Of a DNA stretch of 63,680 bases, positions 1,114-20,650 are shown piece by piece; positions within the stretch are counted from its first letter, which is position 1, and each line of letters opens with the position of its first letter. The stretch comes from Pseudovirgaria hyperparasitica (lineage: Eukaryota). The stretch lies in NCBI GenBank assembly GCA_010093815.1, contig ML996577.1; one strand, given 5' to 3'. Below the pieces are notes generated by a model. That model did not search any database and was not told the origin of the DNA. It was given only the letters and a program-made list of their open reading frames with translations. The position numbers and the translations under genes are program-made.

Positions 1114-1491
1114 ATGATGCTTCTCGAGAACCTCCTCACGGCCTCGACGTTGGTAGGCCTCGTCTTTGCAGCTCCCACAACTCCAACTCGCAACAACGGC
1201 TCCCCTTGTGCTGCCGTGAGTTCTGCTGTCGCTGCTCAGCCAGGCGTAGCGACTCCTACTGTCGGCGCAGAGCTGGCTTATGAGTGCATCAACAGCGTGC
1301 CACTCAACAAGACGGCTGCCCTGAACCTGATCCAGGCCGTCAAGCCGTACTTTCGCTGGCAGAGCACGACCAGTTGGCTCAAGGACCCGCCGGCTGAGTA
1401 CGTCGCAAAGGTCCAGGAGCCTGTCGACATCTTTGGAGAGCTCGACGTGATTGAGGAGAATGTGAAGAGCAAGTGGACGAAGGAGTACGAG
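1114..1491 (+). CDS. Secreted peptidase S41 family (CPAF-like) protein, exon 1; the gene continues at 20651
   Basis: Signal-peptide-like N-terminus followed by PCAAVS, LAYECINSVP and WQSTTSWLKDPP, typical of fungal S41-family proteins. 126 codons end at KEYE, followed by a GTGAGT donor at 1492. Confidence 0.85.
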
Positions 1492-1734
1492 GTGAGTGCC
1501 CTTTGCTTTCTACTGTATATCAGTCTTCTTCGTCTTCTTCTTCTTGTCCAGCCGTTGGAATTAGGCTCTTTGTTTGGTGGGAACAGCCTGCCTTGCTGTA
1601 CAAAACACGGGCCTGAAGGCGCCACTTCCGGGGGGCTTTGTCTTGGCCGATACGCCCCAAATCTGCGAATCTTCCCGCCAATCTTCCCGCCAAAGATCTG
1701 CCAACTCACACGCAATCTCTCGCTAATCAGGAAT

Positions 1735-1833
1735 CCGTTTGTCCATAGTTACATGGGAAAGCTTGGCGCCCGATGCACGTCTGTGCCACTAACACGCGTT
1801 TTTATATATAATTAATATTTTACGGCATCGTCG
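1735..1833 (+). repeat. Left terminal inverted repeat (99 bp)
   Basis: CCGTTTGTCCATAGTTACATGGGAAAGC...TACGGCATCGTCG is the reverse complement of 20535-20633 except for a C>T at 1790. Confidence 0.95.
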
Positions 1834-1931
1834 CTATACTACACGTATATAGAGTCTATAACTATATAATATAGTATATAAGAGTTAGTATATATAATAT
1901 TTAGTATTTTTAACTTACTAACGCGTATATA

Positions 1932-2590
1932 TATAGTACCCTAGGGCGTTATCTATCCCGATTCCATATATAGACGAATCAACTTCCTCCTATAATATAA
2001 TATACCTATTAATAAGATTATCACTATTACTAAAGTTAGTAAGAATAGAATATATAGGACGAGGTTTAACCTTAAGATATATAGATAGAGGAATAAACCG
2101 CAGTTAACACATCATAGTCCACCTCATTAACTAAGTAATTATATAATACGATAACTACTTAAGAGACTACTTTATAAGAGCTAGCTATACCTTAATAAGA
2201 TAGCTAGATAGATATATAAAGAGTTTAATCTTACTATATCTAAATAGCTTCTATCTAAAGAGTTATCTAAGTAAGAGTAGAATCGTAAGCTATTAAAACG
2301 TATTAGTAGTACGCGCTTAGAGATAGTATATACTTTATACCTTAAGGATATCGCGGAGCTACTAGTAGACTCGTATATCTTCTTAGATAAGGTTATTTTT
2401 AATAAAAAAATTAGATAGAGACGTTAAGCTAGAGTACTAAAAGAATAGACTCTAACTAAGATTAGTACTCTTAATCGAGAATCTACGTATAGCGTATATA
2501 GAGCTATTATAGCTAATGGTTTTATCTACTATTAGATAAAGGAAGGTTATTTCTTAACGGATAAGTTCTATACCTAGCTATAAGTATATC
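1932..2590 (+). pseudogene. DDE transposase, 5' part (RIP-degraded)
   Basis: TTC TTA GAT AAG GTT ATT TTT AAT at 2380 reads FLD(E)VIFN, carrying the first catalytic Asp. Many TAA/TAG stops of RIP type. Start is approximate. Confidence 0.75.
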
Positions 2591-2818
2591 TATAAGAATA
2601 GGGTTATTGGATAGTAGTATAGTTAGATAGAACAATAGGGTGTATTCTATTATAGAACAAATTACTACCGAACCCTTTTGGTAGGAATCCGAGAGTATAT
2701 ATATAAAGGGACGCCGATCTATCTAGCACGTGACTATTTACCGCCCTTTACGTCACCTCCTATCCCTATTAGCTAAGGTACGTATAGGTCGGGTCCTATC
2801 TAAGGCTAAGTCCTAATA
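2591..2818 (-). repeat. 3' LTR of element A (228 bp)
   Basis: Direct repeat of 9746-9954 + 17971-17989. The differences seen are C/T and G/A transitions, and the TG..CA termini are mutated to TA..TA. Confidence 0.95.
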
Positions 2819-3302
2819 ATTATCCCTTCCCTCTAGGAAGCTACCCTTAGCGACCTAGATTATTATCTATCCCTATATCTCTATCCTAAGTCTCGTAAGA
2901 CCTTAGTCGTTCTCTACGCTTTATCTTAGATACTTACCGATATTCGCCGATCTAAGATTTATATAAGCGTTTTCCTAATAAACTAAATTTTATCTATCTT
3001 AACTTCTTATATAGGTGAGATTACCTAATTAGGCCTAGCGTATCACGTGATATAATTAGATAAGCCTAGATACTATCTATATTAAAATCTTTTCTTAGAA
3101 ATATTCCTTTCTTTAAAAAACTTCTTAACTCTTTATAGAGTTTTTTAGATTATTAGGTATATTACCCGATCCTTATAGATATAGATTTATATAGATTTAC
3201 TATAATTTAGTGCGATTTACGTAATTTACTAATTTTCGTACCGTCCTTAGCTAGTAATAATATAATTCGTAATAATCCGTATAAATTAATAATAATCTTA
3301 AT

Positions 3303-4284
3303 ATGGTTTCCCGAAATCTTAATACTCTAAAGTAATTAGTACGGAAATAGGCGCCTTCGAATAATCCCTATCTCGTATACGTTACCGATATATTAAAAGC
3401 TATTAATCTATCCTAACCTAGGCCGGGCTCTAATAATCTAGCTATATATTATTATGGTTATTGCTTTCCGTTATATATTACTCATAGTAGTACTAAATCT
3501 ATAATATATAGCACTTACATGACTAAGAAGCGTTATTACTTATAGGTATTTAAGTAAGTTTAAAGAACTTTACGTAGATTTACTTATATTAGTATAGATT
3601 ACTACTAGGCCTCTAGTAACCCCTACTAATAAGGAGCGTAGTACTACCGATTATAACGCCTTAGAGAAGGCTTTCTACGAGCTATATATCTAAGGTAAGG
3701 GTTACGCCTAGGAGTACGATTCTAATAAGATCTATAAGGATTTATCGGAATCTACTATAGCTATTATTACCGTGATTACTAGGTAATATCGTTTTTCTTA
3801 AATTATTATAGATTCTTACTAATATATATTAATCTCTATAATAGTACTAAAATCTCTACTACTTCGGACTTCTTTCTATATACCGGCGATATTAGAATTC
3901 CTAGAAAAGGTTCTAGTAAAAAGGCTAAGGTTCCTTCCTCGCGCATGCTAAAGAGCCGTAAATTTAGGGAAGATAGCTCTAATCTAGAAGTTTCTATACT
4001 AAAGGTATATAGTTCTATACTAATCGTTAAATCTTTTCGCTAATTTATATAATTCTTAGCGTGCCCGCGCCGGTCCGTCCCTCTCCGTCCCGGGTCCTAC
4101 CGCTCCGTAGGTTTCTATAGAGGAGTTTATAGCTATAAGGCGCGCTATATAGAATTTATAGCGTCGGAATAAAAGGCTAGAGACTTATGTTATAAAGCTC
4201 TATACTATACTAAATAAGAACTAGTGGAAGGAATTAGATGTAACTATCGCGGTAATTAGTACTTCTACTCCTACTCTAACTTAA
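3303..4284 (+). pseudogene. Spliced antisense accessory gene of element A (Cys-cluster-like N-terminus, C-terminal coiled coil), RIP-degraded
   Basis: ATG at 3303. Predicted introns 3546-3597, 3783-3844 and 4005-4059 maintain one reading frame. Internal stops are TAA/TAG, restorable to CAA/CAG/TGG. Confidence 0.6.
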
Positions 4285-4699
4285 TTAGTTTAGATCTATA
4301 CTAATCGGTACTAATATGTCTCTTTTATCTAGCGTTTTTAGTTTTTCGGTTTTAATTTTAAAGCGATCTTACTTCTTCTAGATAGATTAGTACGAGTTTA
4401 TATAGATCTATATAGATCTTTATATTTTCTTTTAGCTTTCTTAATTTTATCTTTCTTTAATAATAACTTCTTTAATCTCTTTAGTAATCTATACCGATCT
4501 ATACCGATCGGCACCGATTTTCGATGTCTATTTCTCTTAGTAAATCATTTTTCTAAGTCTTTTTTTTAGTTAAATTTTTAAAGTTCTAAGTTCGAACTTT
4601 CTAAGGAAGTTCCTTAATTCCTTAGAATATTTTAAAGATCTATGTCTCTTTTACCTTCTTCCTTTTAGACGGCCGTCCTCGGCGCTAAACTATACTAAA

Positions 4700-7600
4700 A
4701 AACGTCGAATCGCCGTACTTTGGCATAATTCTCTGCGATTCTACGGCTTCCTTTACTAATCGCTACTTATATACTAATATCGCTGCTTTGCTAATGTTTA
4801 TTATAGGTTCCCAAGTATCTTCGTTAGGATTATATCCTTTCTAATGAATTTTATATAGCTACGTGCCATCTTCGGCGCGTTACTAGCTAAGTATCTACTT
4901 AACTTCGTAGATATCTATACCTTCTTACGTAACTACTTTATATAGTATCTATTCGGAACGATCTGGTAATAATAAGGCATGAAATGGCTCGAGAAGCGTA
5001 ATATAGAATATATTATATATCTTTAACGTAGGAGGGAGTTATAACTCAAACGCCTAGTTATTAATTACACGAGTAATCTTATATAGACCTATTATCGTAT
5101 AGTTAAGCTTCTTCTTTAGCCTAATACTACGAATATTCTTGCTATTTAGTAAAACTTTATCCCTAATATTAAAGATTATAGGTTTTCTACCCTTATTATA
5201 GTGCGATTTACTATAATTCGTAGTATCTTATAGTAACTTTATAACGCTTCTTTACGTTTAGAATAGTTCTATAGTAATTTCTATTACTTTAACGTTAGGT
5301 TATTCTACTTTAAACTAAGTCCCTAAGAACTACGTATTATAGTTCTAACCAAAGTTTACTTCGAACAGACTTACGTAGGTTAACGTATATCAGCTATTAT
5401 TATACGCGAATTCCGCGATATAGACTAACCTTACCTAGTTATCCTACTTATAGTTGTAATATACGCGTAAATACGCCTCGACTATCTAATTCTACCGCTC
5501 TATCTATCTATCTATTTATAGATAGAACGTAGTACTAAGTTTCCGCTTGATTCCTAGCGTATAGTAGAAATCCTTCTAAAATTTAGACGTTATCTACGGA
5601 CCTCTATCCAAAACTATACTATTTAGTATACTATAGAGCCGGACTACGTTACGGAGTAGTATATCTATAAGATCCGGTACTTAGATCGTCTTCCTTATAG
5701 GGATGTAGTATAATATCTTTATAAATCTATCTAGAACTACGAGTAAACTATTATAAATATACCTAGAATACTTACTTAGGGGTAGATCTATAATGAAATC
5801 TATCGATAATTCCTTCTATGCCTCCTTTAGCATAGGTAATAGCCTTAATTCGCTATATAGTAAGTGTCTATATACTTTCGTATACTGGTAAACGTTATAC
5901 GTTTTTATATAGTCTTTTATATATTTATAAAGACCCAGCTAGTCGTATGTCCTTCGGATTAAATCGACCGTTCTTATAACGCCGAAGTGCTCTACTAACA
6001 CGTAATCGTACTATTCCCTTAAAACATTAATTTATAAGCCGCCTTCCGGCACGTAGAGTCGGTCTTAGAAGTAGATCGCGTCTAATTATCGTTTCTACCT
6101 TAATAACTATGGCGGATCTATAGCGCTTCCTTTTATACTTATAACTTTCTTTACTAATATATCGGAATTCTAGATAGATTTAATTAAGTCTTTAAGGGTT
6201 TTCTTAGTTTCTTAGACATTTATTTAGATTACTTAATACCCGCTCTAATTCCCGCGGAGAATCGCCGAAAGTGTCCTAGCTTCTAGTATTCTATTAGATA
6301 ACTAGTCTTATAGTATCTAAAGTATAGTATAGTCTGAATTACACCGACTATCTACGTTATTCTATGACGATTTCTTATAATCTTTACGCCGCGATAGAGG
6401 ATTAGCTTTATTCTCTCTTCTAGCTTTATATAAGATTTTAAAGTTAAATATTAATATCTACTTAGCCTAATATACTTATTAGTAATTAAGGACCTTAGTC
6501 GACATAAAGTAACGTAGATTTATATAATCTAATAATAATTCGATCTAATGTGCGGAGCCTTCTAAATAATATTGCTATTGCTTAAAACTCTCGACGATTA
6601 TAAGTAGTTCCTAGTCGTGCGTGTTATAACACGTCTCTATATCCGCCATTTTATAGGAAAAGAAAGCGACCGGGTGCTATTATACCTTATCTTTTATATC
6701 TTTATATAGTTAACTAATAATTCTAGTAATTACAAATCCTAACGCATTAGTTTCAACCTAAATATACTTCTTAGAATCAAAATACCTAAGAATCGGCGTA
6801 GTTATAAAGTAATTCTTTAACGATCGGAACGTATCTCGCGCTTCCGGCGTTAACTATATCTCGACCGACTTAGCTTTACGCTATACTCGCCTACTTATAG
6901 GGATTTTACCGCCATTCTCTATGAGTTTATTAAGCGGCGCCGTAATTTATAAGAAGCCTATAATAAATTTACGATAATAGTTCACGAAACCTATGAATAT
7001 TCTAATTTAACGTATAGTAGTAGGTTCTAGCTATTCTATAATGGTCTTTACACGCTCCGGCTCCATTTTTAGGCCGCTATATATTATAATAAAGCCAAGA
7101 AACCTAACTTCTTATTAGTAAAACTCGTATTTAGATAATTTTACGTAGAGTTTATACTGCCTTAGACGATTTAGCACCGATTTCACGTGTTCTTTATAAT
7201 TCTATATACTATCGGAGTAAATTAGTATATTATTAAGATAAACTACGTAAATCACGTTAAGTAATTCTACGAGTATAGTATTAATATATCCTTAAAACGC
7301 TCCTAGCGTATTTATTAGCCCGAATGGCATAATAGTATACTTAAAATAACTATATCTAGTCCGAAATATAGTTTTCTACTTATCTTCGTGACGAATTTAA
7401 AGTCGGTAATATATATCTTATAAATCTAGCTTTATAAAGTACTTTGCCTTCGTTAATTAGTCTAAAGATTTACTAACTAGCGGTAATAGATAACGATTCT
7501 TCTTAGTTACCGTATTTAGTGTCTAATAGTTAACGTATAGACGTAAACTTCCGTCTTTCTTCTTTATAAAGAGAATAGATACGCTAGCCGATAACGTACT

Positions 7601-9720
7601 ACGATGTATCCAGCCTCTTTTAAGGTATTCTTTAATATATTTATAAAGAACTTCGAGTTCTAGTCTCGAAAGTAGGTAAAGTAGACTATAAGGAACGTCT
7701 ACTCCCTCTTCGAGCTCGATCTTTAGCTTATACGGCCTGTGATTAGGGAGAAGTAACGTATCTCCTACCGAAAATATATCCGTATACTATGAATATACGT
7801 CGGGTAGCGTGTCTTCGCCCTAATTATTACTATTATCCTTATCTTTATCGACGATTAATAAGGACGTAAGATAGATTAGCGACGATCGGGTCCGCATGGC
7901 GAGGTTCCATGCCTCCTTACTAATAGTTACGACTTACTAGTATAATTTACTACGGTGTTATCGGAATATTAATATCTCCTTCTAAAAATTAAGGATGGGG
8001 TTTAGGCGTCTAAGCTAAGGTATCCCTAGAATCATATTCTATTAGCTAATATTAGCCACGATGAATTTATTAGATATCTACTATTTTATTATCTTCGAGT
8101 TATGAACTTCGTAATTCGTTATAGCTTTACCTAAAGTTCTAACTTCATGTCTATTAACTATAATAGTTCGGCTAACTTTACCAAGATTATACGATAATCT
8201 ATACTCCTTTATAAGAATCGATAAAATATAGTTATCTTCTATACTAGTATCCACGAGGGCCTATATAGTTTTATTACTATTTACTATAGGTAACGATACT
8301 TTTAGTAAAATTAGGTCTTTACTCGCCGGAAGGCGCTACGGCTCCTCCTAAGTATATATAATTTAGCTAAGAACGCGGTTAGGTCTTGTGTACTAGCCTA
8401 TTCTTTTTTCGGATTCTTATAGTTAGGCGAAATATATTCTATTTCTCTATACTTATAGTAATGAAGTGCGCTATAATCCTACTATTTTACGATAGGCGTT
8501 ATATTTAAGCCTATATCTTATCCTTTTCCGCGTTAAGAAGCACCGCCTCGATTATTTTAGTGTCCTCTTAACGCGTTTCTACCCCGATTTACGCTCTTCT
8601 AGCGCTAATCGCGGTAAGGTTACTCTTAATTAAACGTATTTAATCGACCTCGTTTCTAACCCGTATAGGGTTCGTCGGTTTTACCTAGAGAGCCGCGTTC
8701 CTTAAGGATGTGATAGTATTTATTAGCTTTCTCCTCTAATTCGTATAGATAGTTAAAACTTAATAATACTATTTCTAGTCTTTCGCGGATTAACGGAAGT
8801 AGTACTTCGCGAAACTAGAATATACGAATATTTTCCTATAGCGTAGAGATATTATTCTATAGGTTTTAGAGGTATTATAGTAGTTAAGTAGATGTCTAGT
8901 TCGGTCGTTATGCTACGCTTCTTAACTTAGATAGTACCTTTCTTTTACGTTCTCTATCCGTTCCGAGGGTGTTTAGTATAAATATAGCTAAATATTCCTA
9001 GGTTATCGTAGATAGTGGCTGCACTTCCTTCTATCTATCCTATTAATCGCGGGATTATAAGTCTAGGTATCATTCTCTAAACGAAATGCGTTATACTTTA
9101 GTAGAAAAGAGTAGAGGGTTATTGAGGAAGTACTTTTCGTAGTCTCTCTTCTAGTCTTTCTACTCCTTTTAGTTCTTCCCTATAAATATAGTCGGGTCTT
9201 TAGATTTTAGTATATCTAGGGAAGGAGTAGGGTAAATCGGTAACGAAGCGGCTGGGTATACGGTGGATTATCGTAACTCTAATAGTAGGTGAACTAATTC
9301 TGCCTAAATTGGTATAGGAAGTCGTCTACCTACTATCGTTCGGCGTAGTTCTTTAAGAGACTCCTTAAGTTCTCGTCTCTTTACGAGGAGTTTTGCGCGT
9401 TCTATCTATTCTTTAAGGGTTTAAATCTCTCGAGCCTAATTCGCGACGTATTCCTAAAGTTTAGCGATAGTTTATTATAATACCTCGCGTGGCTCCGCCA
9501 CGACTTATTATCCGGCTTTATATTATTAGAAGTTACTCGGCGTATCTACTATTTCTTCGTCTAAAAGCTCCGTGATTTAGTCTAATATTTCTACTTCTTA
9601 GTTAGAAACGGCCGGGATTAATACCGATTATAGAGGATCCCTATTATTTAATATAGTGTTACTTATCTCTATAGTAGATCGTGTCGACCTTCTCGGTTCT
9701 AGTTAGACTATCTTAACTAT
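4700..9720 (-). pseudogene. gag-pol of element A (RIP-degraded)
   Basis: Zinc knuckle near 8420-8460, protease ALVDT(G) near 8245-8260, RT ~7000-7700, RNase H ~6500-6800, integrase ~5300-6000, chromodomain ~4790-4920. Boundaries are approximate. Confidence 0.85.
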
Positions 9721-9745
9721 AGTACTATATAGGAAGTAATTCGAA

Positions 9746-9954
9746 TATAAGAATAGGGTTATTAGATAGTAGTATAGTTAGATAGAATAATAGGGTATAT
9801 TCTATTATAGAACGAATTACTACCGAACCCTTTCGGTAGGAATCCGAGAGTATATATATAAAGGGACGCCGATCTATCTAGTACGTGACTGTTTACCGCC
9901 CTTCACGTCACCTTCTATCCCTATTAGCTAAGGTACGTGTAGGTCGGGTCCTAC
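9746..9954 (-). repeat. 5' LTR of element A, main part (the remaining 19 bp are at 17971-17989)
   Basis: Matches 2591-2799 and is broken at CCTAC by element B. Confidence 0.95.
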
Positions 9955-10194
9955 TGTTAGGGCTGACACCAGGATGGACTCAACTAGACCACTATGGTCT
10001 AGTACGGTCCGTGACAGGTGGACCCAGGTTAAGCCAGCTAGAATAAGCGAGACCACTATATAAGTAGACCGCACATACTTAATTCCTACTCTTTAGGAAT
10101 CAACCTTATTAGGAGAGTAGACTACCCTTTTAAATATATTCCCGAATCCTCCTATGACCTATTAGACTGCTATCCTACGTCTATAATCCTTACA
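9955..10194 (+). repeat. 5' LTR of element B (240 bp)
   Basis: TG..CA termini; direct repeat of 17726-17965. Confidence 0.95.
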
Positions 10195-10235
10195 TTTTGA
10201 TTCCTCTTTATATAGCACGACGGCAGTTCATAGGA

Positions 10236-13200
10236 ATGGCTCTAACCACTCGTCATAACACTCGTGGCACCGCCTCTTATAGTAGACCTTCTCCTAACCT
10301 GAACGAGGAGAATAGTCTACCTATAACTACCCCCACCGATAACTATACCTTATAGGCTATCGCACCGATAACTCGCACGATATTCCGTGTAACTATAGAA
10401 GATATTATAGAATACGAGGATGGAGTCCATCACACTCCATCTCGGTCTAGTTCAAACCATACTAGACCTAACCTTAACACGAGGCCAGACCTTATTAACG
10501 TTGACGAGTTAATCCGTTAGAATCGTCTAACGTTAACCACACCTTATAACGACGTATATACTAGACTACACGAAGAGAGGTAACGATAGGTTTAACTCGA
10601 GCAATAACTACGCGAACTCGACGAAGCTCGAGAACGCACTACGAGACTTAAAGCTGCATTACGCGCTTTAGTTCTAGTAACGACCAATCTATATTTATAT
10701 GGACCCACACCAACTGAAACGATCCATCCTAGTCCACTACTATCCCAATTGCCCCGACCTAAGAAACTACCTCACTTCGATGGTAAAAGTAGAAAGAGTT
10801 TCCACGCATAGGCTCACTAATATAGCCGATTCTTCTATCTATTCACGAACGACAGCGATAAAATTAGATTCGCCTAGAACTACCTCGACCCGACGCCTTT
10901 AGAACGTTAGATGGCATACCGAATCGAATATTCTAAGGATGCCTATAACTAGGACACGTTCACCGAATTTCTCCTCTAATATTTTGGCGATAGGGCTAAA
11001 CGACGCGACTAGGCCCAGGGCTATATCTTCGAGACTCGATAACGAGATAATTAGTTACCGTTATAACTCCTTGAATACCTTCGGCCCCTCTAGAGAGAAG
11101 CCGAAGAAGATCGTATGATTCGATAGTGCGACGACTTTAAACGGTCCCTCGCCCTAAATGTAAAGGACCGTCTCGACCTTACAACGATAATCTCTATAGA
11201 CCTCTAAGCTCTTATAAACCTTACGGAGCGACACTAGCGTATAATAAATAATTAACGCCGCGCTGGTGTACGACTGTCTCTAACGATCCAATCTAACGCA
11301 AAATCGTCTAACTAAAACCGATTTAGTAACAGATCTCGCGGGACGTCACGAGGCCACTACCACGCCTCGAATTCAAAACCACGCGGATCGTATCGTGGAT
11401 CTCCCTACTAATCGACACATCGAGATACGAGGACCGACTCGCATAAACGATCTAAAGTCACTTACTACACCTATGGTAGAATAGACTATATAGCACCTGA
11501 GTGCCGTTCGGGGAAGCCACCGAGTGCTAATATAACTAACTAACCAGTTATATGCTATAAGTGCTAGTAGCTAGGACATATCGCGCCTAACTACCTAGCA
11601 TAGAACATAAAAAACTAATAGCCTACGAGAAACCCTCGCGACTTATAGGCGCGACCATAATAGAGGGGTAATCCTCCAAATAGTACATCGAACTATAGGC
11701 TAGACCCATCGAGGTCCCTCGTGGATAATATTAGACTATAATGCTCGATAGTAGGTCGGCCACTAACGTTATGTCGACCTAACGAGCACGAGAACTTAAC
11801 GCCGACATCTAAGCTCTAATAAGTACCATGTTCCATGGCATCGACGGTCCCATTAAGTCACACGGCACCTACACTATCAAATACGGTATCTAGGACAGCG
11901 GAGGGAAATGGAAACTCTACTGCTTAACCTTTATCGTGGTAGACAGTCCCTTCGACATGATCCTAGGTATGCCGTGGCTTAAGAAATATAACCTAAAACT
12001 AGACTTCCTTAAGAAGACAGCTGGCTGGCGTATGAACCCACCTTAATAGGAACTAGTGTAGCTTATTAACGACGAATAATTCTAGAAAGATTACGAAAAG
12101 GCGATCTCTACTATCTACGTGCTCTTACTCACGTAAAATGGTAAGCTTAATATTAAAGTGGACGAAAACCTACCACATTAGTATAAAATGTACTAACATG
12201 TCGCGTCAGCGATCGATTCCTCCGAACTACCTTAATACTAACCTACCGACCTTACTATTGATCTCGAAGACGGCCAGTAACCTTTACATGGACCTATCTA
12301 CCCTCTTTTAGAACCTAAGTTATAAGCCCTTCGAGAATATATCGAAAAGAACCTTACGCGAGGGTGGATTAGGCCTAGTGTGTCCCTAGCCGGAGCTCTA
12401 ATCCTCTTTGTAAAGAAGAAGGATAGGAGCCTCCGTCTATATGTCGACTACCGTGGCCTGAATAACATCACGCGAAAGAATCGTTACCTACTACCTCTTA
12501 TCTCCGAGTCTATTAATAGACTAGGGCGCGTAAAGATCTTTACTAAGCTCGATCTACGTGACGCCTACTATCGCCTTCGTATTAAGGAAGGCGACGAATG
12601 GAAAACGGCTTTTAGGACCCGTTATGGACACTTTGAGTATACCGTGGTCCCTTTTGGACTAACTAACGCGTTAGGCACCTTCTAAGCGTACATTAATAAC
12701 GCGCTAGTAGGCCTACTCGACACGACATGTATCGTGTACCTAGATAACATCCTTATCTTCTTAGATAACGAGGAGGAGCATATCTAGCACGTACGTGTAG
12801 TCCTAGACAGGCTAGAAAAGCATAAGCTATATATTAAGCTATCCAAATGCGAGTTCCATTAGGACCATGTTAACTTTCTTAGCTTCGTTATTACTAATCA
12901 AGGTGTAACCATAGAGAGAGATAGAGTTACTACTATTATGGACTGGCCTAAACTAAAATCCGTTCGAGATATACGTGTCTTTATTGGCTTCGCCAACTAC
13001 TACCGAAAATTTGTTAAACACTTCTCCCGTTTAGCCGCACCACTTAATACGCGCACTACTACCACCGACTCGTCTATTACGGTCCGTGGTAGACAGAAAC
13101 AGCGTAATATTAAATTATAACCTATTAAATTAACTAAGGTCGAAAGAACATCCTTCGAGAAGATTAAAGAAGCATTCCTAACCGCCCTATTGCTAGTGTA

Positions 13201-15400
13201 CTTTAACCCGACCAAACCTATTCGCGTCGAAACTAATGCATTAGGATTTGCAATCTCGGGTATACTCTCCCAGCCTAGACCAATAGAGTCTAAAAAGGTC
13301 TAATGGCATCCAGTTGCGTTCTTCTCGCGCAAGATGGCCGACGTCGAGACTAGATATACTATTTATAACCAAGAGCTGCTAGCAATAGTAGAGTCGTTCA
13401 AGTAGTGGCGATATTATCTTAAAGGTGCCATGCATGACGTTAAGTTACTAACTAATCACCATAACTTAAAGGGGTTCATAAGCACGACGGTTTTAAATCG
13501 TCGATAGGTTTAATGGGCTAAGTAGCTTATAAATTTCTACTTTGTAATCCACCATTAACCTAGAAGTATAAACCCAGCTAATAGGATGTTAAGAAGACCT
13601 AACTATGAAGAAGGCGCCTAGGATTATAGTGGCCATAGGGTCCTAGAGTAGCTGTAGGCCCAACTCTTAAGGACGAGGTTAGATAATAAGTTATCCGACG
13701 ATTAGCGAGATGCTAACGCCGATGCCGGTAATCGAATTTATAAGACCGAAGCCGGTGACCAAAGACGCGGTACCGAAGTCCCTAGCGAGCCATTTATCGG
13801 CGCTGTTAGGGAGGGCGATGGTGCCCGGCGTGTATGTTAAGTAGACCTTGCCTAGTTAATCGTGGATCTATAAAAGATAGACCCGATAGTTTTAAAGTTA
13901 CGTAAAATGTAGTAAGATAGGTTATTACGGACCGAAGTGGACTATAAGTAGACCTTCGTGGACGGCTTACTCCACTACGATGGAAAGTACTATATGCCGA
14001 CGGGCAACGCACGATTCACCGTAGTTAGCCGATACCATGACGCTAACCTAGTAGAATATTTCGGGTATGTACGCACCCTAAGCTCGATTCGTTAGTACTA
14101 TTTTTAGGAAGATATACCTAAGTACGTCGAAGAATGGATAGCTACTTATCCGATTTATTAAAGAATAAAGGCACCTAGGCATAAGCCATATGGGAACTTG
14201 CAGCCTCTACCAGTCCCCCTCTTTATATGGGAAGATGTTACTATGGATTTCATAGTTGACTTGCCTCCAAGCGAGATGCTTAGGATAAGTTATGATTCAA
14301 TTCTTATTATCGTGGATAGACTTATAAAGATGTCTAGGTACGTCCCTATGTGGAAGATGATCACATTAAAAGAACTAGTATAAGTATTCTAGAATAAGAT
14401 CATTAAGGTCTATGGTATACTAAAAAGGATCGTTACGGACCGAGGGAGTACATTCACGTCTAAATTCTGGACGTCATTCTGCGAAATGGCCGGTATGAAT
14501 AGAAACATGTTAATAGCATTCCATCCACAAACAGATGGTTAGACAGAGTGATAGAACCAAACGCTCGAGGCCTACCTTCGTGCATTCTATAATTTCGAAT
14601 AAGACGACTGGGCCTCTCTACTAAGCATAGTAGAATTCGCGTATAATAATAGTCGTTATAGTATAATAGGTGTCACGCCCTTCTAGGCGAACCTAGGACG
14701 TAGTCCAAGGATAGGTTTCGAACCTTACACGGTCTAGTTCGACCGAACGATAGATTTTAACGTCCACGCGCAGGAACTAGCGATTAAAATCTTTAAAACC
14801 GCACGCAACTATCACGTAATAATCTAGTAAGCGAATAAGTCGTATACAAAGTACTATAATAGGTTAGTTAAAGATCAAGCGTACGAGGAGGGAGACGAAG
14901 TCCTCCTTAACATCTGTAATATACAAACGTCGCGAGTGAACAAAAAGCTCGATTATAAAATGGCTGGTCCCTTCCGAATCAAACGTCGTATCGGTATAAG
15001 AGCCTACGAGCTCGACCTAGGAAACGACATGAAAGTCCATAATGTATTCCACGTCTCATTGCTTAAAAGGTTTCGACCTAACGTGTACAAACGCACGAAC
15101 GTGCAATTACACTCTATTATACCCTAAGATGGACTAGACGTGTACGAAGTGGACTATATTGTCGAACATAGGCTCGACGAGAACGGTGTCTAAAAGTATC
15201 GAATCCGTTGGAAGAACTACACCGAGGATGAGGATACCTAGGAACCTACGGTGCATATCTTAAGTGCCGCGATGGCTATATATAAACAGAGGTTATAGGA
15301 TAACACGTTACTACCGTAAACCTAGCGCCGTCGGGGCCGTCGCAAAAAGAAGAAGGATGCCGTGGAAAACGAAGTGTCGAATCACGAATCCCAAACGCAC
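10236..15400 (+). pseudogene. gag-pol of element B (RIP-degraded)
   Basis: Two CCHC knuckles at ~11460-11600, AAAAAAC at 11609-11615 directly before the gag stop, RT ORF 12380-12685, RNase H ~13200-13600, integrase 14198-14700, chromodomain ~15140-15260. End is approximate. Confidence 0.88.
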
Positions 15401-15933
15401 ACTAGGAAAACTCTATAAGGCAGCCCCACAATTCAAGCGATATACGGTTACCAAACGCGAAGAAAACGTAAATAACCGTTATAGGCACGCGACGCGATAT
15501 ATCATAATAGAATAACATAGAGAAGTCCAGAATGGACTAATATGGACCATTACACACGAGAAGAACATGGGACTAAGAAACCAAAAAGGTACCCCACTAC
15601 GGAATTAAACTCGTGATATATAATATAAAAGGTTAGAGTACCCGAACCGATGACCACTAGGCCACTGGTTTAGGTGCTCTAATATAATTTAGAGAGATAA
15701 ACCAATTTATATACGATGCCCACACTTAAGTGACTTAAAGGAAATCAGAACCTAAAATTCAATAGTCATAGAATAAATAAGAACGCACACAATATCATTA
15801 AGTTAAGAATTAAATTACTAGAAAACTGGTAGACGGGTATCTAAACGGTCTAAAAAGGACCAAAACGGATAGAAACCAGGCAGATAGAGCCAACACACAC
15901 TATATAGAAACCCTAGTAAATAGAGCCATAGAG

Positions 15934-17238
15934 CTACTCCTCCATCTTATTATTACTCTTAGAGCGTAGCGAACGAACTAACCGAGTAATAGAGCGACGG
16001 AGGTTAGAGACCTTATCCTCTAGAGTAACCACGCGCTCGGTCAGAGCCTAGTAAGACGACGACTAAGCGCTAGAGCGGAGCAACTAGACCTAAAGTTAGC
16101 TAACGCGGTCTAGAATAATCTAGAATAGAATATATACCCTCTTACGAGGTGACTTAGAAGGAGAACTAGTAGATCTCTTGCGAGACCCGTTAGTAGCACG
16201 AGGTGGGCGGGAAGGAACAGCACGAATCTCTTCTGCGGCCTTAGTGGCCAAAACCGACTCCCTAGAATAGGTAGCCTAAGCGCTAGGAATCTCGCGGCGA
16301 CTGAAAATTATAAGCTGAGGTTAATGATAATTAACGGTTTCTAAACTCACACTTTAATGACCTCTAGGAAGAGCTTATAGCGCTCCCTAAACTCCCTGCG
16401 CATAGAAGCCAGGTGACTGCTAGAACCGCCGAGAGTCTCGCGGACGCGAAGATCGTTATATACATCTTACACACGAATAGGAACCTAAAAACGCATTAGC
16501 ATGGACGACTTTAGATTACCCTAGACCAAAACAGCCTAATAGACTCACCTAAAGATAAACTTTACCGAGGACGGCATAGCGGCGGTAGCGGGTAGGGAGC
16601 TTAAAGATTAGGCGTATAGGCCCGTCGCGGTTAGTAGAGTAGTAGCTAATGCTAGAGTTAGAGCGGAAGAGATATTTAGAGCCGGTGGCGTGAGCCTTAA
16701 TGTACTTAAAGCACATCGAACCGTAGTTCGCCGTTTTCCTATGGCGCAAACCGCGACCACGTTTAGTATCTTTGGCGACCTAGGCCTTATTATTACTAGG
16801 GCTGGGTTTAGAGCGAATATTAAGGTCCTAAAAGGACCTAGAGCGACTAAGTCGGTCTATATTAGACCGAAAAGAGGAACGGCGTTTAGAGCAAGGCGGC
16901 GAAGGCGTGAACTCTCGATTATCGTCTACGACGAGATCTTCTTTATCCTCTAAAGGAGGTAGAGTAGACAGGCGGCGCGAGTAGGTGTAGGTAGGCTTTA
17001 TAGCCACCTCTTCCGCAACACCAGTACTAGGATCACCTGGATTAGAGCGACTAGTGGCCACGTCAGTGGTAATAGTAGTAGTAGCCTTAGCTACCTTCTT
17101 CTCTAACTTGGAGCGCGCCTTCACACTACTACGATGAGTGGATTTTTTAGCCGGTATAGCCGGGGTAGAGGTAATCCCTTTAGAGCGGGTCTTGCGAGAG
17201 GAGGAGGCAGGCTTGGGAACAGGACTAGTATTAGACAT
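15934..17238 (-). pseudogene. Spliced antisense accessory gene of element B (basic N-terminus, Cys-cluster-like motif, C-terminal coiled coil), RIP-degraded
   Basis: ORFs 17238-16828 and 16749-16549 share a frame. Canonical minus-strand introns at 16548-16485 (GTGAGT..GCTAAT..TTTAG) and 16350-16301 (GTGAGT..CAG) keep the frame to about 15934. Confidence 0.7.
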
Positions 17239-17725
17239 CTATACACACACGTTAGCTAGAGATCTGAGAGTGGAATACTCGTTCAGCCTCAAAGGCGATT
17301 AAAGAAGCTAAATTAGTGACCGCAACAACGCGAATAGATTATATAGGACCAGCTCTAACGAAAATAGACTACTCTAGACCCGAACGGATCTAAACTAAAG
17401 GAGATAGTATACGAATTAACGACTTACCTTAAGAGTAAGGTGGATGTACTAGAGAAGAAAATTTAGAATAAGAAAACTAAATATAAGCTTAGTTAATGTG
17501 GCGGTTATATGACCCGCGGAGCTACCTCTAAGGTAGCAGCCATGAAGTAAGGGATAAGCGCGTGCATAAATAAAAGTGAACTGGAGCTCAAGTTCACCGA
17601 TGTAAAGACTATCGATAACGTCACATAGATTCAATTGGATGCGCGCATAAACATGACGCTTTTGGAATTACGGATTTACGTATAGCTGAGTACTTCGGGG
17701 CGAAGCATAAAAAGAAGAAGGATAT

Positions 17726-17965
17726 TATTAGGGCTAACACTAGGATGGACTTAACTGGACCACTATGGTCTAGTACGGTCCGTGATAGGTGGACCTAGGT
17801 TAAGCCAGCTAGAATAAGCGAGACCACTATATAAGTAGGCCGCATATACTTGATTCCTACTCTTTAGGAATCAACCTCGTTAGGAGAGTAGACTACCCTT
17901 TTAAATATATTCCCGAATCCTCCTATGACCTGTTAGACTGCTATCCTACGTCTACAATCCTTACA
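17726..17965 (+). repeat. 3' LTR of element B (240 bp)
   Basis: Direct repeat of 9955-10194 with transition differences. Confidence 0.95.
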
Positions 17966-17994
17966 CCTACCTAAGGCTAAGTCCTAACAATATC

Positions 17995-18470
17995 TATTAT
18001 CTACCCTTAAGGTAAACTACCCTAGGTATATAATAATAATTATTATAGATAATCTTGCACTTTATACGAACTAATAGATTAAGCTACTTATACTTAGCGC
18101 TAGCTATATTATACGGTATATACTACCGTACTTACCTAACTTTAATTTTATTAAGCTTATATAGGTAGTAATAAAGGTATAGATTTATAGATAGTATACC
18201 TAGATATATTAGTAATCTCGAACTTTTAAGAACTTTCTCTATATTATATTTATATATAGCTATACTAATTAGTAGACTCTATACTTCTTTAAATATACTA
18301 TAGATAGATACTATATTAACGAGACGCTCTAGTAGAAGGTAGTCGCTAATTTAGAGAGGTTTAGATAAGATAGAGGTGGTAGAGAGATTACTAAAGTTAA
18401 GGAGATTAGGAGACTTTTTTATAAACTTATTAAGTAACTTACTCGTTACTAACTCGCCGATAAGTAAGTT
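17995..18470 (+). pseudogene. DDE transposase, 3' part (RIP-degraded)
   Basis: In frame with the 5' part once element A and one TSD copy are removed. Asp codon at 18048, then 34 codons including LPYLPNFNFI (de-RIP: PPYSPDFNPI), then the Glu position at 18153, giving DD34E. Confidence 0.8.
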
Positions 18471-18536
18471 ACTTAGCTAGCTAGTAATAGTCTATATATA
18501 TATCTATTTTAGGCACTATTCATTAAGTATATAGCC

Positions 18537-20430
18537 TTAATATATAAATATATACTTCTAAATATACTCTAAGAAATACTATACCATCCCTATCTAAATA
18601 CTAGTTATACTAGTTATAGTAAACGCCTAGAGCGAGGACGCCGCCTTACTTACCTTAAGTTACTCCTTATACTTATAAAGGTATAGACGTGCGTCTAGTA
18701 GAATACTAAGTAGAATATCTACTATCTTCGCGGCTTTATAATAAGTAGTTCTAGGCTAAGTTATCTTCTTAATATAGCGGTAAGTATAGTAGTTATTATC
18801 TATATATAGTCTTAATTTATATATTCTAGCCCTCGTCTTATTATAAGTCTCTATCTCCTTACGCTATTTAAGAGCTAATAGTACTATATCCACCTAGTAA
18901 CGCCCTAGTTATACTAGACTACTAAAGGTTTCTATAACTCGTGTCTAAGGGGGTGTTTTATAACGAGTCTTACGAGTTAGTAAATAATTTAAACTATAAG
19001 TAGATAGAGAGCGAGATTAAGGTTAAGATTAAGGAAACATAGGTATCTATATAGGTATTCTAGGATTAAATCTATAATACTATAATTCTATCTAACGAAG
19101 TAGTTAAGTATATATAAGCTTATCTTTATTATCTTAATAATATCTTACTACCGCCTCCTCGTGCTTAATTATTATCTATCTTATCTACTTATCTTAAAGC
19201 CTCGTATTCCGCTCCTTACGATCTAACTTAGCCTTCTTATATTATAATCTCTTTATTTTAAGGCGCTCGAGTATAGAAGTAGTACTTCCGTTAACGGCGG
19301 TTAACGAGGTACTAGTTCTACTACTAGTTCGAGACTTCCTTAGGCATGGTTAAGTAATAATCTTATAGAATAAGTCTATTAACGGCTTATCCTTAGTTAC
19401 CCCTTAAATACTATTAATAATATTATTAGCCTATAGCTCTAAGATAGTCTTATCTATCTTATAGTAGAGTATTCTATTAGGTAATATAATCTTATAGTAC
19501 TAACCTTAGTAGTTTATATATATCGCCTTACTATACTAGAGCTTACTCTAAATATTATTAATAATAACTTCTTAGATACGGTCTCGCTATCTTTGCTCCT
19601 CCTATAATTTAAATAGCTATTTTAAGTATCCCTTAAGGTTCGGATCTATAGGTAATAATACTAGACTAGTAGAAACTATACTAGTAAGTAGTAATAGCGT
19701 AGGAGACTTCAAATTAGATACTATAGCCTTCTTACATCCTAGTAGCTAATAAGACTTATAGATAATAGTATTCTCAAAGATAAGGAATATAGCCTCTAGT
19801 AGATCCTTTCTTACTAGGCTATAGATCTTATTAAGGAAGGTAAGAAGCTTATCCTAGTTATCTAGACTCTAGTCTAGAAGTATTAACTATTTCCTAGTAT
19901 AACTAGATATTCTAAGCTTTATAGTAAAGCCTTAAGTCTTAAATAGCTAGTTATTAGTGCCGAGAGCCTTATTAATTAACTACTAAATCTCCTCCTTATA
20001 TAACTCCTTCTTAAACTTATACTAGGCTTCCGTCTTTAGTAATATAGCCTTAATAATCTTTCTAAAACTATCTACTCTAAGTTACTAATTTATATAGATA
20101 GACTATATTATCTTATTAAGAGCCGCGTTATTATTCTATAGGTTCTCCTTCTTCTTCTTCTTAACTATATCTCTATAAACTAAAGTAGAGTTATTAGTAT
20201 TATTAAGTATATTATTTAGTAAGGCTAGAGAATCGCTTAATAAGGGTACGTTAGAGGGCGCTAGTAGTATATTTTTATACCTTACTACTATCTTTATAGC
20301 CCTTAATACCTTATCTATACTATACTAGAGTGCCTTTAATATAGATATATATAGCTATAGCCTAGGAGGTGGTAGTAGAGGTTCTATTAAGTTATCCTAT
20401 CCGAATTAAATACCTTTACGCTACTTAGAA
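18537..20430 (-). pseudogene. Putative second gene of the DNA transposon, function unknown, RIP-degraded
   Basis: Minus-strand segments read by hand (20160-19770 and 18800-18537) give protein-like frames with scattered RIP-type stops. Boundaries are approximate. Confidence 0.45.
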
Positions 20431-20534
20431 GGTATAATAGATAGTATAAAATAGTTAAAAAAACACTAATATATGGCTAATATCGTATAATACTAATATA
20501 TAATAGGTATTTTAATAGGTATATGAGTATTCGT

Positions 20535-20633
20535 CGACGATGCCGTAAAATATTAATTATATATAAAAACGCGTGTTGGTGGCACAGACGTGCATCGGGC
20601 GCCAAGCTTTCCCATGTAACTATGGACAAACGG
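20535..20633 (-). repeat. Right terminal inverted repeat (99 bp)
   Basis: Reverse complement of 1735-1833. Confidence 0.95.
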
Positions 20634-20650
20634 ATCCTTCACATCTTTAG

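Follow-up and report, generated by a model that had tools for sequence, protein, structure and literature searches.

The original account of brtn, a gene of Boty-like elements, is said to be that of Zhao et al. 2011 (Virology 417:248). Passages of four papers (PMC8365987, PMC7264820, PMC4227169 and PMC5987419) describe brtn as an antisense gene of Boty-like Ty3/gypsy chromoviruses in Botrytis cinerea and Sclerotinia, and BRTN-like transcripts in Monilinia are reported among the same sources. For plants, the relevant parts of PMC7264820 and PMC11963269 describe antisense open reading frames (ORFs) between pol and the 3' long terminal repeat (LTR) in Grande, RIRE2, Retand with TRP28, and PvRetro13, and both mention retroviral antisense proteins, including HBZ. 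Here we compare with these systems a locus of the fungus Pseudovirgaria hyperparasitica, located in a 63,680-nt stretch of contig ML996577.1 (assembly GCA_010093815.1; hereafter the window). Two chromoviruses mutated by repeat-induced point mutation (RIP) lie there in opposite orientations, element A (2591-9953, minus strand) and element B (about 9955-17965, plus strand). We conclude that positions 3303-4224 on the plus strand are probably the RIP-inactivated remnant of a four-exon, spliced accessory gene that one fungal chromovirus lineage carries in antisense; the copy in B is less damaged, and that in L003, a relative found in metagenome contigs, is intact.

L003 is one of 80 loci obtained when metagenome contigs were searched with the integrase-chromodomain part of B. 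It is a 7.67-kb element with LTRs that are 98.9% identical, TG..CA ends, a target-site duplication (TAAGG), a polypurine tract and open frames for gag (352 aa) and pol (388 + 810 aa). With a G+C content of 0.555 it is not RIP-mutated, though its flanks strongly are, and it is a complete and apparently young element. The tail between the end of pol (8908) and the start of the 3' LTR (11146) measures 2238 nt and contains, in the same position and orientation as the models in A and B, an antisense gene on the minus strand with an ATG at 10554 and exons at 10554-10288, 10220-10024, 9908-9671 and 9602-9411 (267, 197, 238 and 192 nt). Introns of filamentous fungi have a GT donor near GTRNGT, a CTRAY branch site, a YAG acceptor and a length of about 45-120 nt. 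The three L003 introns (67, 115 and 68 nt; donors GTAAGG, GTGAGT and GTGAGT; branch sites TACTGAC, GCTAAC and TACTAAC; acceptors YAG) show all of these features, as do those of B, whereas the only good signals in A are those of intron 3. Splicing yields 297 uninterrupted codons from four exons with intron phases 0, 2 and 0, the pattern that had been written down for A and B before L003 was read. The predicted protein has 13 Cys within its first 190 residues, including C-x2-C and C-x-C-x2-C-x6-C, then a basic stretch rich in Lys, Arg and Ser, and finally a charged, helical C-terminal tail of heptad or coiled-coil type.

For element A, the earlier note, made from the letters alone, had proposed a spliced antisense frame, and its description of that frame proved accurate throughout. 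From the ATG at 3303, exon 1 (3303-3545, plus strand, 81 codons) reads PYLVY at codons 22-26 (3366-3380), then 42 residues, then YSTYMTKKRYYL and a TAG (3507-3545), with three further in-frame stops upstream of it (codons 11, 16 and 38), which the earlier note does not mention; between about 3340 and 3550, purine/pyrimidine periodicity is best in frame 0. Intron 1 (3546-3597, phase 0, 52 nt) has the acceptor TATAG and the donor GTATTT, which is weak, as had been conceded; a stronger donor, GTAAGT at 3554, would yield the wrong frame. Exon 2 (3598-3782) comprises 61 codons plus 2 nt with two stops, and its purine fractions at codon positions 1, 2 and 3 are 0.689, 0.475 and 0.344. It is followed by intron 2 (3783-3844, phase 2, 62 nt; donor GTAATA, branch-like TACTAAT, acceptor AATAG). 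Exon 3 (3845-4004; 1 nt plus 53 codons) is free of stops, basic and rich in Ser, Lys and Arg, with purine fractions of 0.642, 0.472 and 0.396 and the strongest periodicity in the tail, up to 0.41. Intron 3 (4005-4059, phase 0, 55 nt) has TACTAAT/GCTAAT and the acceptor CTTAG, and its donor GTATAT, with which intron 3 of B likewise begins, is what GTATGT becomes after a RIP-type change. Exon 4 (4060-4224, 55 codons) carries the heptad-like tail EEFIAIRRAI*NL*RRNKRLETYVIKL, three internal stops, a terminal TAG at 4222-4224 and a weak frame-1 periodicity. Altogether the model has 251 codons with nine internal stops plus the terminal one, and its first two exons (243 and 185 nt) are close in size to those of L003. 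Between the 3' LTR and the ATG lies a spacer of about 0.5 kb (2799-3302, plus strand), the putative promoter and 5' untranslated region of the antisense gene, which corresponds to distances of 485 nt in B and 592 nt in L003; upstream of 3303 the frame is filled with stops and has no purine/pyrimidine periodicity, and the opposite strand of the spacer is the polypurine-tract side of A.

The B model, from our own reading of the antisense strand, also has four exons and phases 0, 2 and 0, with eight internal TAA or TAG stops in 381 codons. Exon 1 (16549-17238, minus strand, 230 codons, two internal stops plus the final TAG) contains a 136-aa open frame (16828-17238) and ends in YRRYAVLGKVYL-TAG (16587-16549); exons 2-4 lie at 16484-16351, 16300-16138 and 16089-15934, and in the last of them Leu occupies four successive heptad positions. 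The introns are found at 16548-16485 (GTGAGT..GCTAAT..TAG), 16350-16301 (GTGAGT..TTAAC..CAG) and 16137-16090 (GTATAT..GCTAAC..TAG). When the 2.45-kb antisense tail was searched with an unbiased pattern of donor, branch site and YAG, exactly three sites were returned, starting at the three model donors, with intron 2 ended at an earlier YAG (36 nt against 50 nt in the model); the same pattern found no intron-like site on the sense strand of the B tail.

The first exons of A and B both end in Y-x2-Y-x6-Y-L-TAG, as had been noticed from the sequence, and in the six frames of the 63.7-kb window this pattern occurs exactly twice, at 3507 on the plus strand (A) and 16587 on the minus strand (B), in each case on the antisense strand of the tail. 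The pattern is most simply read as a RIP product of a Cys pattern and not as a Tyr motif. Cys is encoded by TGY and Tyr by TAY, and TpG to TpA is a RIP change. Exon 1 of L003 ends in C-E-C-G-R-C-F-L-L-N-R-E-C-Y-A immediately before the GT, which puts Cys residues at -13, -10 and -3 relative to the donor, and the Tyr residues of A and B (TAT, TAC and TAC at 3507-3509, 3516-3518 and 3537-3539 in A; TAC, TAT and TAT at 16587-16585, 16578-16576 and 16557-16555 in B) occupy exactly these positions. Because the positions coincide and TGY to TAY is a RIP change, the "Tyr motif" is probably a converted C-x2-C-x6-C motif. L003 exon 1 has seven Cys in 89 residues, for which the probability of Cys at all three pre-named positions is about 5e-4, or about 4e-3 if either Cys or Tyr is counted (14 of 89). 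The more permissive pattern [CY]x2[CY]x6[CY]x2+GT has three occurrences in the six frames of the 18.5-kb RIP block, two of which are the A and B sites. Two further resemblances carry no statistics: Y-P-C-T-G-C of L003 and N-P-Y-L-V-Y of A lie at nearly equal distances from the start codon, and E-Y-G-C-N-F-P-D-I of L003 can be set beside Y-Y-G-Y-C-F-P-L-Y-I of A, N-Y-G-S-M-C-F-K-Y-I of B and V-Y-G-F-P-I-Y of L011, a truncated relative described below. Among 40 of the 1072 differences from same-species contigs, none falls at a motif codon.

RIP alters only C to T and G to A, and the pattern of purines and pyrimidines is unaffected by it. In the A model the purine fractions at codon positions 1, 2 and 3 are 0.594, 0.478 and 0.394, and the difference between positions 1 and 3 (0.196) compares with 0.043 ± 0.039 for the best frame of dinucleotide shuffles (P = 0.0005); none of 304 slid placements on both strands reaches it. 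The B model (0.551, 0.483 and 0.320) has a difference of 0.229, which 0 of 2000 shuffles attain. A sliding scan along A (120 nt) gives as best frame 0, then 1, then 0 and then weakly 1 between about 3340 and 4270, with changes at about 3530, 3745-3840 and 4010-4030 that correspond to the three proposed introns, and no signal appears outside this interval. The intact L003 gene (0.628, 0.540 and 0.359) has a codon-position signature like those of the A and B models and unlike that of its own pol (0.574, 0.542 and 0.544); the pol fractions are 0.576, 0.524 and 0.528 in A and 0.589, 0.516 and 0.464 in B.

The three carriers belong together in an integrase-chromodomain tree of 77 rows (FastTree), in which A, B and L011 (support 99) are sister to L003, L006 and L013 (100), with a joint Shimodaira-Hasegawa-like support of 93, apart from a clade of 62 rows. 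Measured from chromodomain to 3' LTR, the tails of A (2799-4783, 1985 nt) and B (15270-17722, 2453 nt) are unusually long, as is that of L003. By comparison, 84-626 nt separate the integrase/chromodomain match from the start of the 3' LTR in 11 loci of other clades whose LTR pair is clean (about six families; L024, L028, L029, L031, L033, L037, L040, L045, L074, L078 and L080). Set aside from this comparison were a truncated locus (L057), loci that are cut or in tandem (L039, L041 and L048) and those with low-identity or composite repeat pairs (L001, L002, L025, L056, L064, L069 and L079). Within the clade, L006 and L013 break off before the tail or 31 codons into it. Pieces of same-species public contigs, tens of thousands of them at a likeness of at least 80%, cover A and B including the tails, as densely there as in pol and with differences that are almost all transitions; we therefore take A and B for high-copy families to which the tails belong, not for private insertions. 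Two further runs (X3 and X4, kind unknown) yielded a handful of short pieces at low depth, 4103-4250 and 15869-16023 among them, none of which showed a joint at an intron. The gene is seen in A, B and L003 only, with L011 as a possible fourth carrier, and a wider breadth is unproven.

L011 itself is a RIP-mutated, truncated 2.1-kb contig with an antisense stretch of 134 codons and one stop (1486-1887, minus strand) in a single frame with no evident intron. The stretch holds YGFPIY, a basic part rich in Ser, Thr and Lys, and a heptad-like end, and is not significantly similar by sequence.

Several results weigh against our reading, and for A they would suit a pattern of chance in RIP-mutated DNA, with introns fitted to mimic B and real genes in B and L003 only. 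RIP floods a sequence with TA and hence with Tyr codons, TAA and TAG stops and GTA..TAG pairs. The depletion of stops in A is not above chance (10 against 13.8 ± 2.6 in free-frame shuffles, P = 0.10) and is matched by 34% of slid same-strand placements. Intron-like patterns are not enriched (3 against 1.69 expected in A, P = 0.24; P = 0.16 in B), the unbiased search recovered only intron 3 of the three in the A model, the donors GTATTT and GTAATA are weak, and the 2-kb A tail offers 85 GT dinucleotides. Since the earlier reader chose the A introns with an eye to B, their agreement in phase is no independent evidence. The same reader had also suggested comparison with shuffled sequence, in which the splice signals of A turned out to be at chance level, and the Tyr/Cys motif with its GT appeared in 6% of shuffled A tails (9% for B), a figure that gives the motif alone some chance of being accidental; nor is there any significant similarity between the A protein and those of B or L003. 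Yet the periodicity in A, unmatched in every slid placement, would have to be accidental too, as would the switches of frame at the three introns, the lack of signal outside the model, the agreement of the codon-position signature with the intact L003 gene and not with pol, Tyr positions that match the L003 Cys when counted from the phase-0 GT, and a tail with the length and layout of those in B and L003. We consider this explanation unlikely.

Alternatively, the three genes may be real and not homologous, the long tails being a landing place where host genes or de novo frames were acquired independently and the shared phases and motif being coincidental. The earlier note had itself named a lack of significant similarity between the reconstructed proteins as grounds for giving up its proposal, and no such similarity between A and B was found. 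Their Smith-Waterman score is 35 against 38.2 ± 5.9 for shuffled sequences (P = 0.72; P = 0.21 with RIP-aware scoring, which is too permissive to discriminate), and tblastn of the six frames of A against B gave nothing in the tails at E<=1, whereas in pol it matched stretches of 569 residues at 44% identity and of 443 residues at 34%. Significant similarity to L003 is lacking in A and B alike, for whole proteins and for single exons. Exon 4 alone reaches nominal values, for A and B (P = 0.006 end-free global and 0.04 local, uncorrected, in eight tests) and for B and L003 (P = 0.0095 RIP-aware and 0.06 plain, uncorrected, in 16 tests); P ranges from 0.14 to 0.97 in all the other comparisons among the three. 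Separate origins would also suit the different exon sizes (243, 690 and 267 nt for exon 1 and 160, 163 and 238 nt for exon 3 in A, B and L003) and the G+C content at third codon positions, 0.785 in the L003 gene against 0.598 in its pol, which would fit a host origin, and plants provide a precedent in a lineage within which, according to part of PMC11963269, different antisense domains occur. Our main reading has further results against it. B exon 1 had no homologue among 1.84 billion representatives searched by phmmer and none in the word index, L003 exon 1 retrieved from the word index, among longer proteins and those of near length, only an identical copy (P0002), tblastn of the spliced L003 protein against the 80 loci and the window found only L003 itself, and Pfam placed neither the three antisense frames of both tails nor the four L003 exons in a family; the clade, moreover, comes from a FastTree analysis with long, compositionally odd branches. 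Independent acquisition would leave to coincidence, however, that exon number and phases are equal in all three (1 in 27 for L003 against the pre-stated pattern), that Cys or Tyr coincide at three donor-counted positions, that the order of Cys-rich part, basic part and heptad tail is the same, and that the carriers fall in one clade. The gag proteins of A and B, homologous and fast-evolving, are just as undetectable (P = 0.057; reverse transcriptase scores 987 against 233 ± 16), so the similarity test has little power at this divergence and a fast-evolving homologue would go unseen. Separate origins seem to us distinctly unlikely, somewhat less likely than a chance pattern in A. Very improbable indeed is a role of the tail as RNA or regulatory DNA, for example in copy-number control or small-RNA production, with incidental open frames. 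It would agree with the lack of any protein family or homologue, with an AlphaFold2 single-sequence model of L003 exon 1 that is unstructured by its confidence (predicted local distance difference test score 36) and unusable, and with a 15-nt palindrome, GGCCCAWWATGGGCC, in every intron, the LTRs and untranslated parts of L003; it does not explain why the 297-codon frame opens only once three canonical introns are removed, why third positions of the L003 gene are so strongly biased in G+C and purine content, or why the same signature persists in A and B.

A conserved antisense gene thus remains our preferred reading. The earlier note had called it an old conserved module rather than a one-off capture, and this was right in substance, on grounds other than its own: the L003 gene with its phases, the Cys positions and the single integrase clade speak for it, and the missing A-B protein similarity and the unproven breadth do not. 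The copies in A and B are dead pseudogenes, because RIP created TAA and TAG stops in them and probably turned the TGY Cys codons of the motif into TAY Tyr codons.

In a working copy, the gene would be transcribed from its own promoter within the roughly 0.5 kb beside the 3' LTR, convergently with gag-pol, and its three short introns would be spliced from the antisense transcript only. In the sense genomic RNA the introns would be present as reverse complements, never be spliced and so survive each round of reverse transcription. An intron-bearing gene could ride in a retroelement only in antisense, because introns in the sense RNA stay unspliced in this way. From the composition of the protein, and by analogy with antisense proteins of plant LTR retrotransposons and of human T-cell leukaemia virus (HTLV), the likeliest product would be a regulator, probably nuclear, that binds zinc, oligomerises and controls either host silencing or the expression of the element itself; promoter, expression, zinc binding and nuclear role are all features that we infer. 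A bolder version, which we hold tentatively and judge rather improbable, is that the clade kept a host-like, intron-bearing antisense gene, unrelated to brtn, across a divergence of pol to about 35-40% identity, and that its Cys-rich coiled-coil product, possibly with BIR-like zinc binding, acts on the host and not on the element, for instance by weakening silencing or the cell-death response to retrotransposition. If so, it would be the first retroelement accessory gene with an exon structure traceable over such depth, and RIP would conceal it in most genomes through the change of Cys to Tyr.

Attempts to place the protein in a described family produced leads and artefacts. Residues 7-49 of L003 exon 1 (10288-10554, minus strand) show a weak alignment (E 0.28-1.3) with BIR domains in XIAP and NAIP and agree with them at many consensus positions, LA..YY.G...V...C.G.L..WE.G....E...FP, a resemblance that we keep as a lead only. 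A BIR is a domain of about 70 aa with the zinc ligands C-x2-C-x16-H-x6-C. The N-terminal half of the domain is absent from the alignment, one of the four zinc ligands is Cys or His at the aligned position, and Pfam gives no match to PF00653 at E<=10, so that we rejected a BIR zinc finger. A Zn2Cys6 cluster follows C-x2-C-x6-C-x5-12-C-x2-C-x6-8-C. L003 exon 1 closes with no more than the first half of this, C-x2-C-x6-C; after that the nearest Cys is 18 residues away and does not form C-x2-C, there is no Pfam match, and this candidate was rejected as well. The single phmmer match to B exon 1 (P0001) is an eightfold tandem-repeat protein that sums weak stretches and was discarded as an artefact, as were the matches of L003 exon 2 in the PDB to designed repeat proteins ('Cake'), which come from the same summing over repeats. 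Neither the match of L003 exon 3 to SLD3 (E 0.74) nor that of exon 4 to the coiled coil of JIP4 (E 0.39) is significant in the PDB search with phmmer, and the likeness of exon 4 is to nothing but coiled coils. The ESM Atlas gave no usable match.

Two further features of L003 deserve mention. A 15-nt palindrome, GGCCCA-NNN-TGGGCC (mostly GGCCCATWATGGGCC; GGCCCAWWATGGGCC), recurs, exact or with a single mismatch, in all three antisense-gene introns, both LTRs, the spacer and the upstream region, and twice in pol, at positions that include 3683, 9236, 9620, 9933, 9992, 10238, 10764 and 11177. It may serve as a binding site or form a hairpin in RNA, and none was seen in recognisable form in A or B. 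Overlapping exon 1 and its upstream region in another frame, a stop-to-stop frame of 318 codons with almost no Met (10043-10996, minus strand) is probably a chance frame in G+C-rich DNA.

The setting of A and B is a nest of mutated transposons. The genic part of the window has a G+C content of about 50%, and an AT-rich block spans about 1834-20534, in which TpA/ApT is 1.5-1.8, with 1.5-1.6 for A and B, against 0.63 in the genic part. The RIP index (CpA+TpG)/(ApC+GpT) is 0.21 in A, 0.55 in B and 0.10-0.15 in the remaining block against 1.3 in the genic part, and A and B show the marks of RIP, with an excess of TpA, a loss of CpA and TpG, and differences among contigs that are almost all transitions, the class to which C>T and G>A belong. 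The LTRs of A, a repeat pair of 95% identity on the minus strand, lie at 2591-2798, adjoining the tail (the 3' LTR in the orientation of A), and at 9746-9953 (the 5' LTR). Between tail and 5' LTR are the RIP-mutated gag-pol (4910-9745, minus strand; reverse transcriptase, RNase H, integrase and SH3), with 70 stops in 1040 in-frame codons, and at the end of pol a chromodomain (4783-4909, minus strand), matched by Pfam Chromo at E 7.1e-06 in residues 1613-1654 when the frame is read through from 9745. For the Pfam scans of both pol genes the frames were read through with X in place of stops, which gave RVT_1 (3.2e-21), RT_RNaseH_2 (1.9e-15), Integrase_H2C2 (2.9e-06) and SH3_Tf2-1 (4e-10) in A, and in B a Chromo match (1.7e-07) at about 15143-15269. 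B has LTRs at 9952-10194 and 17723-17965 (94% identical), with a polypurine tract before the 3' LTR, and as the earlier note had said, blastn finds no similarity between the LTRs of A and B. RVT_1, RNase H, the integrase zinc-binding domain, a Tf2-type SH3 and Chromo are ordered in one frame on the minus strand in A and on the plus strand in B, and it is because of these domains, ending in Chromo, and of the LTR pairs that we call both elements chromoviruses of opposite orientations. The insertion of B struck the last bases of A's LTR and duplicated 5 bp of target, CCTAC (9950-9954 and 17966-17970).

Some observations concern the surroundings of the nest. About 22 nt past B (17966-17992) match the sequence after A's other LTR (2799-2822; CTAAGGCTAAGTCCTAA..), as if they were the remnant of a second, tandem copy of A sharing that LTR; a search to the right of B (17966-20500) found no second A copy and nothing A-like beyond these 22 nt, which resemble the start of the A tail. 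An inverted repeat of 101 bp (1733-1833 and 20535-20635), 99% identical and not RIP-mutated, flanks the nest at 1834-20534 and could mark where a larger mobile unit, an inversion or a duplication ends. Some same-species contigs (runs X1 and X2) join sequence left of A (2556-2592) to sequence right of B (17990-18029) with 32-37 other letters between, and the A and B nest therefore seems to lie inside another repeated sequence. Run X3 contains a 2840-nt record with a depth of 2604, against 4-12 for its other pieces, which overlaps part of the A LTR (2685-2814) at 86% likeness and continues into unrelated sequence.

To the study of antisense accessory genes in LTR retrotransposons and of their function, L003 contributes an apparently young, intact exemplar together with degraded relatives, and with it a concrete candidate protein for the control of retrotransposition or genome defence in fungi. 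A conserved four-exon structure would explain why the orientation is obligatorily antisense. For annotation, the lesson is that a Cys-rich domain can appear in RIP-mutated genomes as a Tyr-rich pseudo-motif, and that purine/pyrimidine periodicity can still recover the frame after RIP.

Among the known systems, HBZ of HTLV-1 is antisense to gag-pol, spliced, begins at the 3' LTR side and has a basic region followed by a leucine-heptad tail. The present gene shares the antisense orientation, the start on the 3' LTR side, the splicing, and a basic region plus heptad tail; it differs in its extra Cys-rich N-terminal part and its fungal retrotransposon host. In a bZIP protein the basic DNA-binding region stands directly before the Leu heptads. 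Although B exon 4 does show four heptad Leu, in B the basic cluster stands apart from the heptads, and no bZIP match was found by Pfam in the tail frames or the L003 exons, so a bZIP assignment was rejected. With the plant ORFs, to the extent that the sources above describe them, the gene shares position, orientation, a long region between pol and LTR, probable conservation within a lineage and a suspected nuclear or DNA-binding regulatory role, and with Grande also a promoter of its own, as proposed here. The plant elements are mostly non-chromoviral and their ORFs continuous as described in those passages, whereas the present gene has three conserved introns, and the A and B tails and L003 exons have no Pfam match to TRP28. 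A coding region on the opposite strand between pol and the 3' LTR, which defines aORF-3R (Vicient and Casacuberta 2020), is present in these elements, clear in L003, and degraded but supported by periodicity in A and B. The likeness to brtn, from what the cited passages say of it, lies in an ascomycete chromovirus with gag, reverse transcriptase, integrase and chromodomain and an extra antisense gene between pol and the 3' LTR. No link between the two by sequence came to light: in databases that should include BRTN, the phmmer search with B exon 1 and the word searches with L003 exon 1 gave no BRTN-like protein, the queries being a RIP-damaged exon and a single exon of 89 aa (the latter in the word index). 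A literature search that left subscription journals and supplements outside its range found no published account of a fungal chromovirus gene that is antisense, spliced and Cys-rich, and the word 'antisense' does not occur in the survey 'LTR retrotransposons in fungi' (PMC3248453). Antisense accessory genes of LTR retrotransposons are known from plants and, in fungi, from Boty and its brtn alone, and the spliced, conserved form described here is a variant of that theme.

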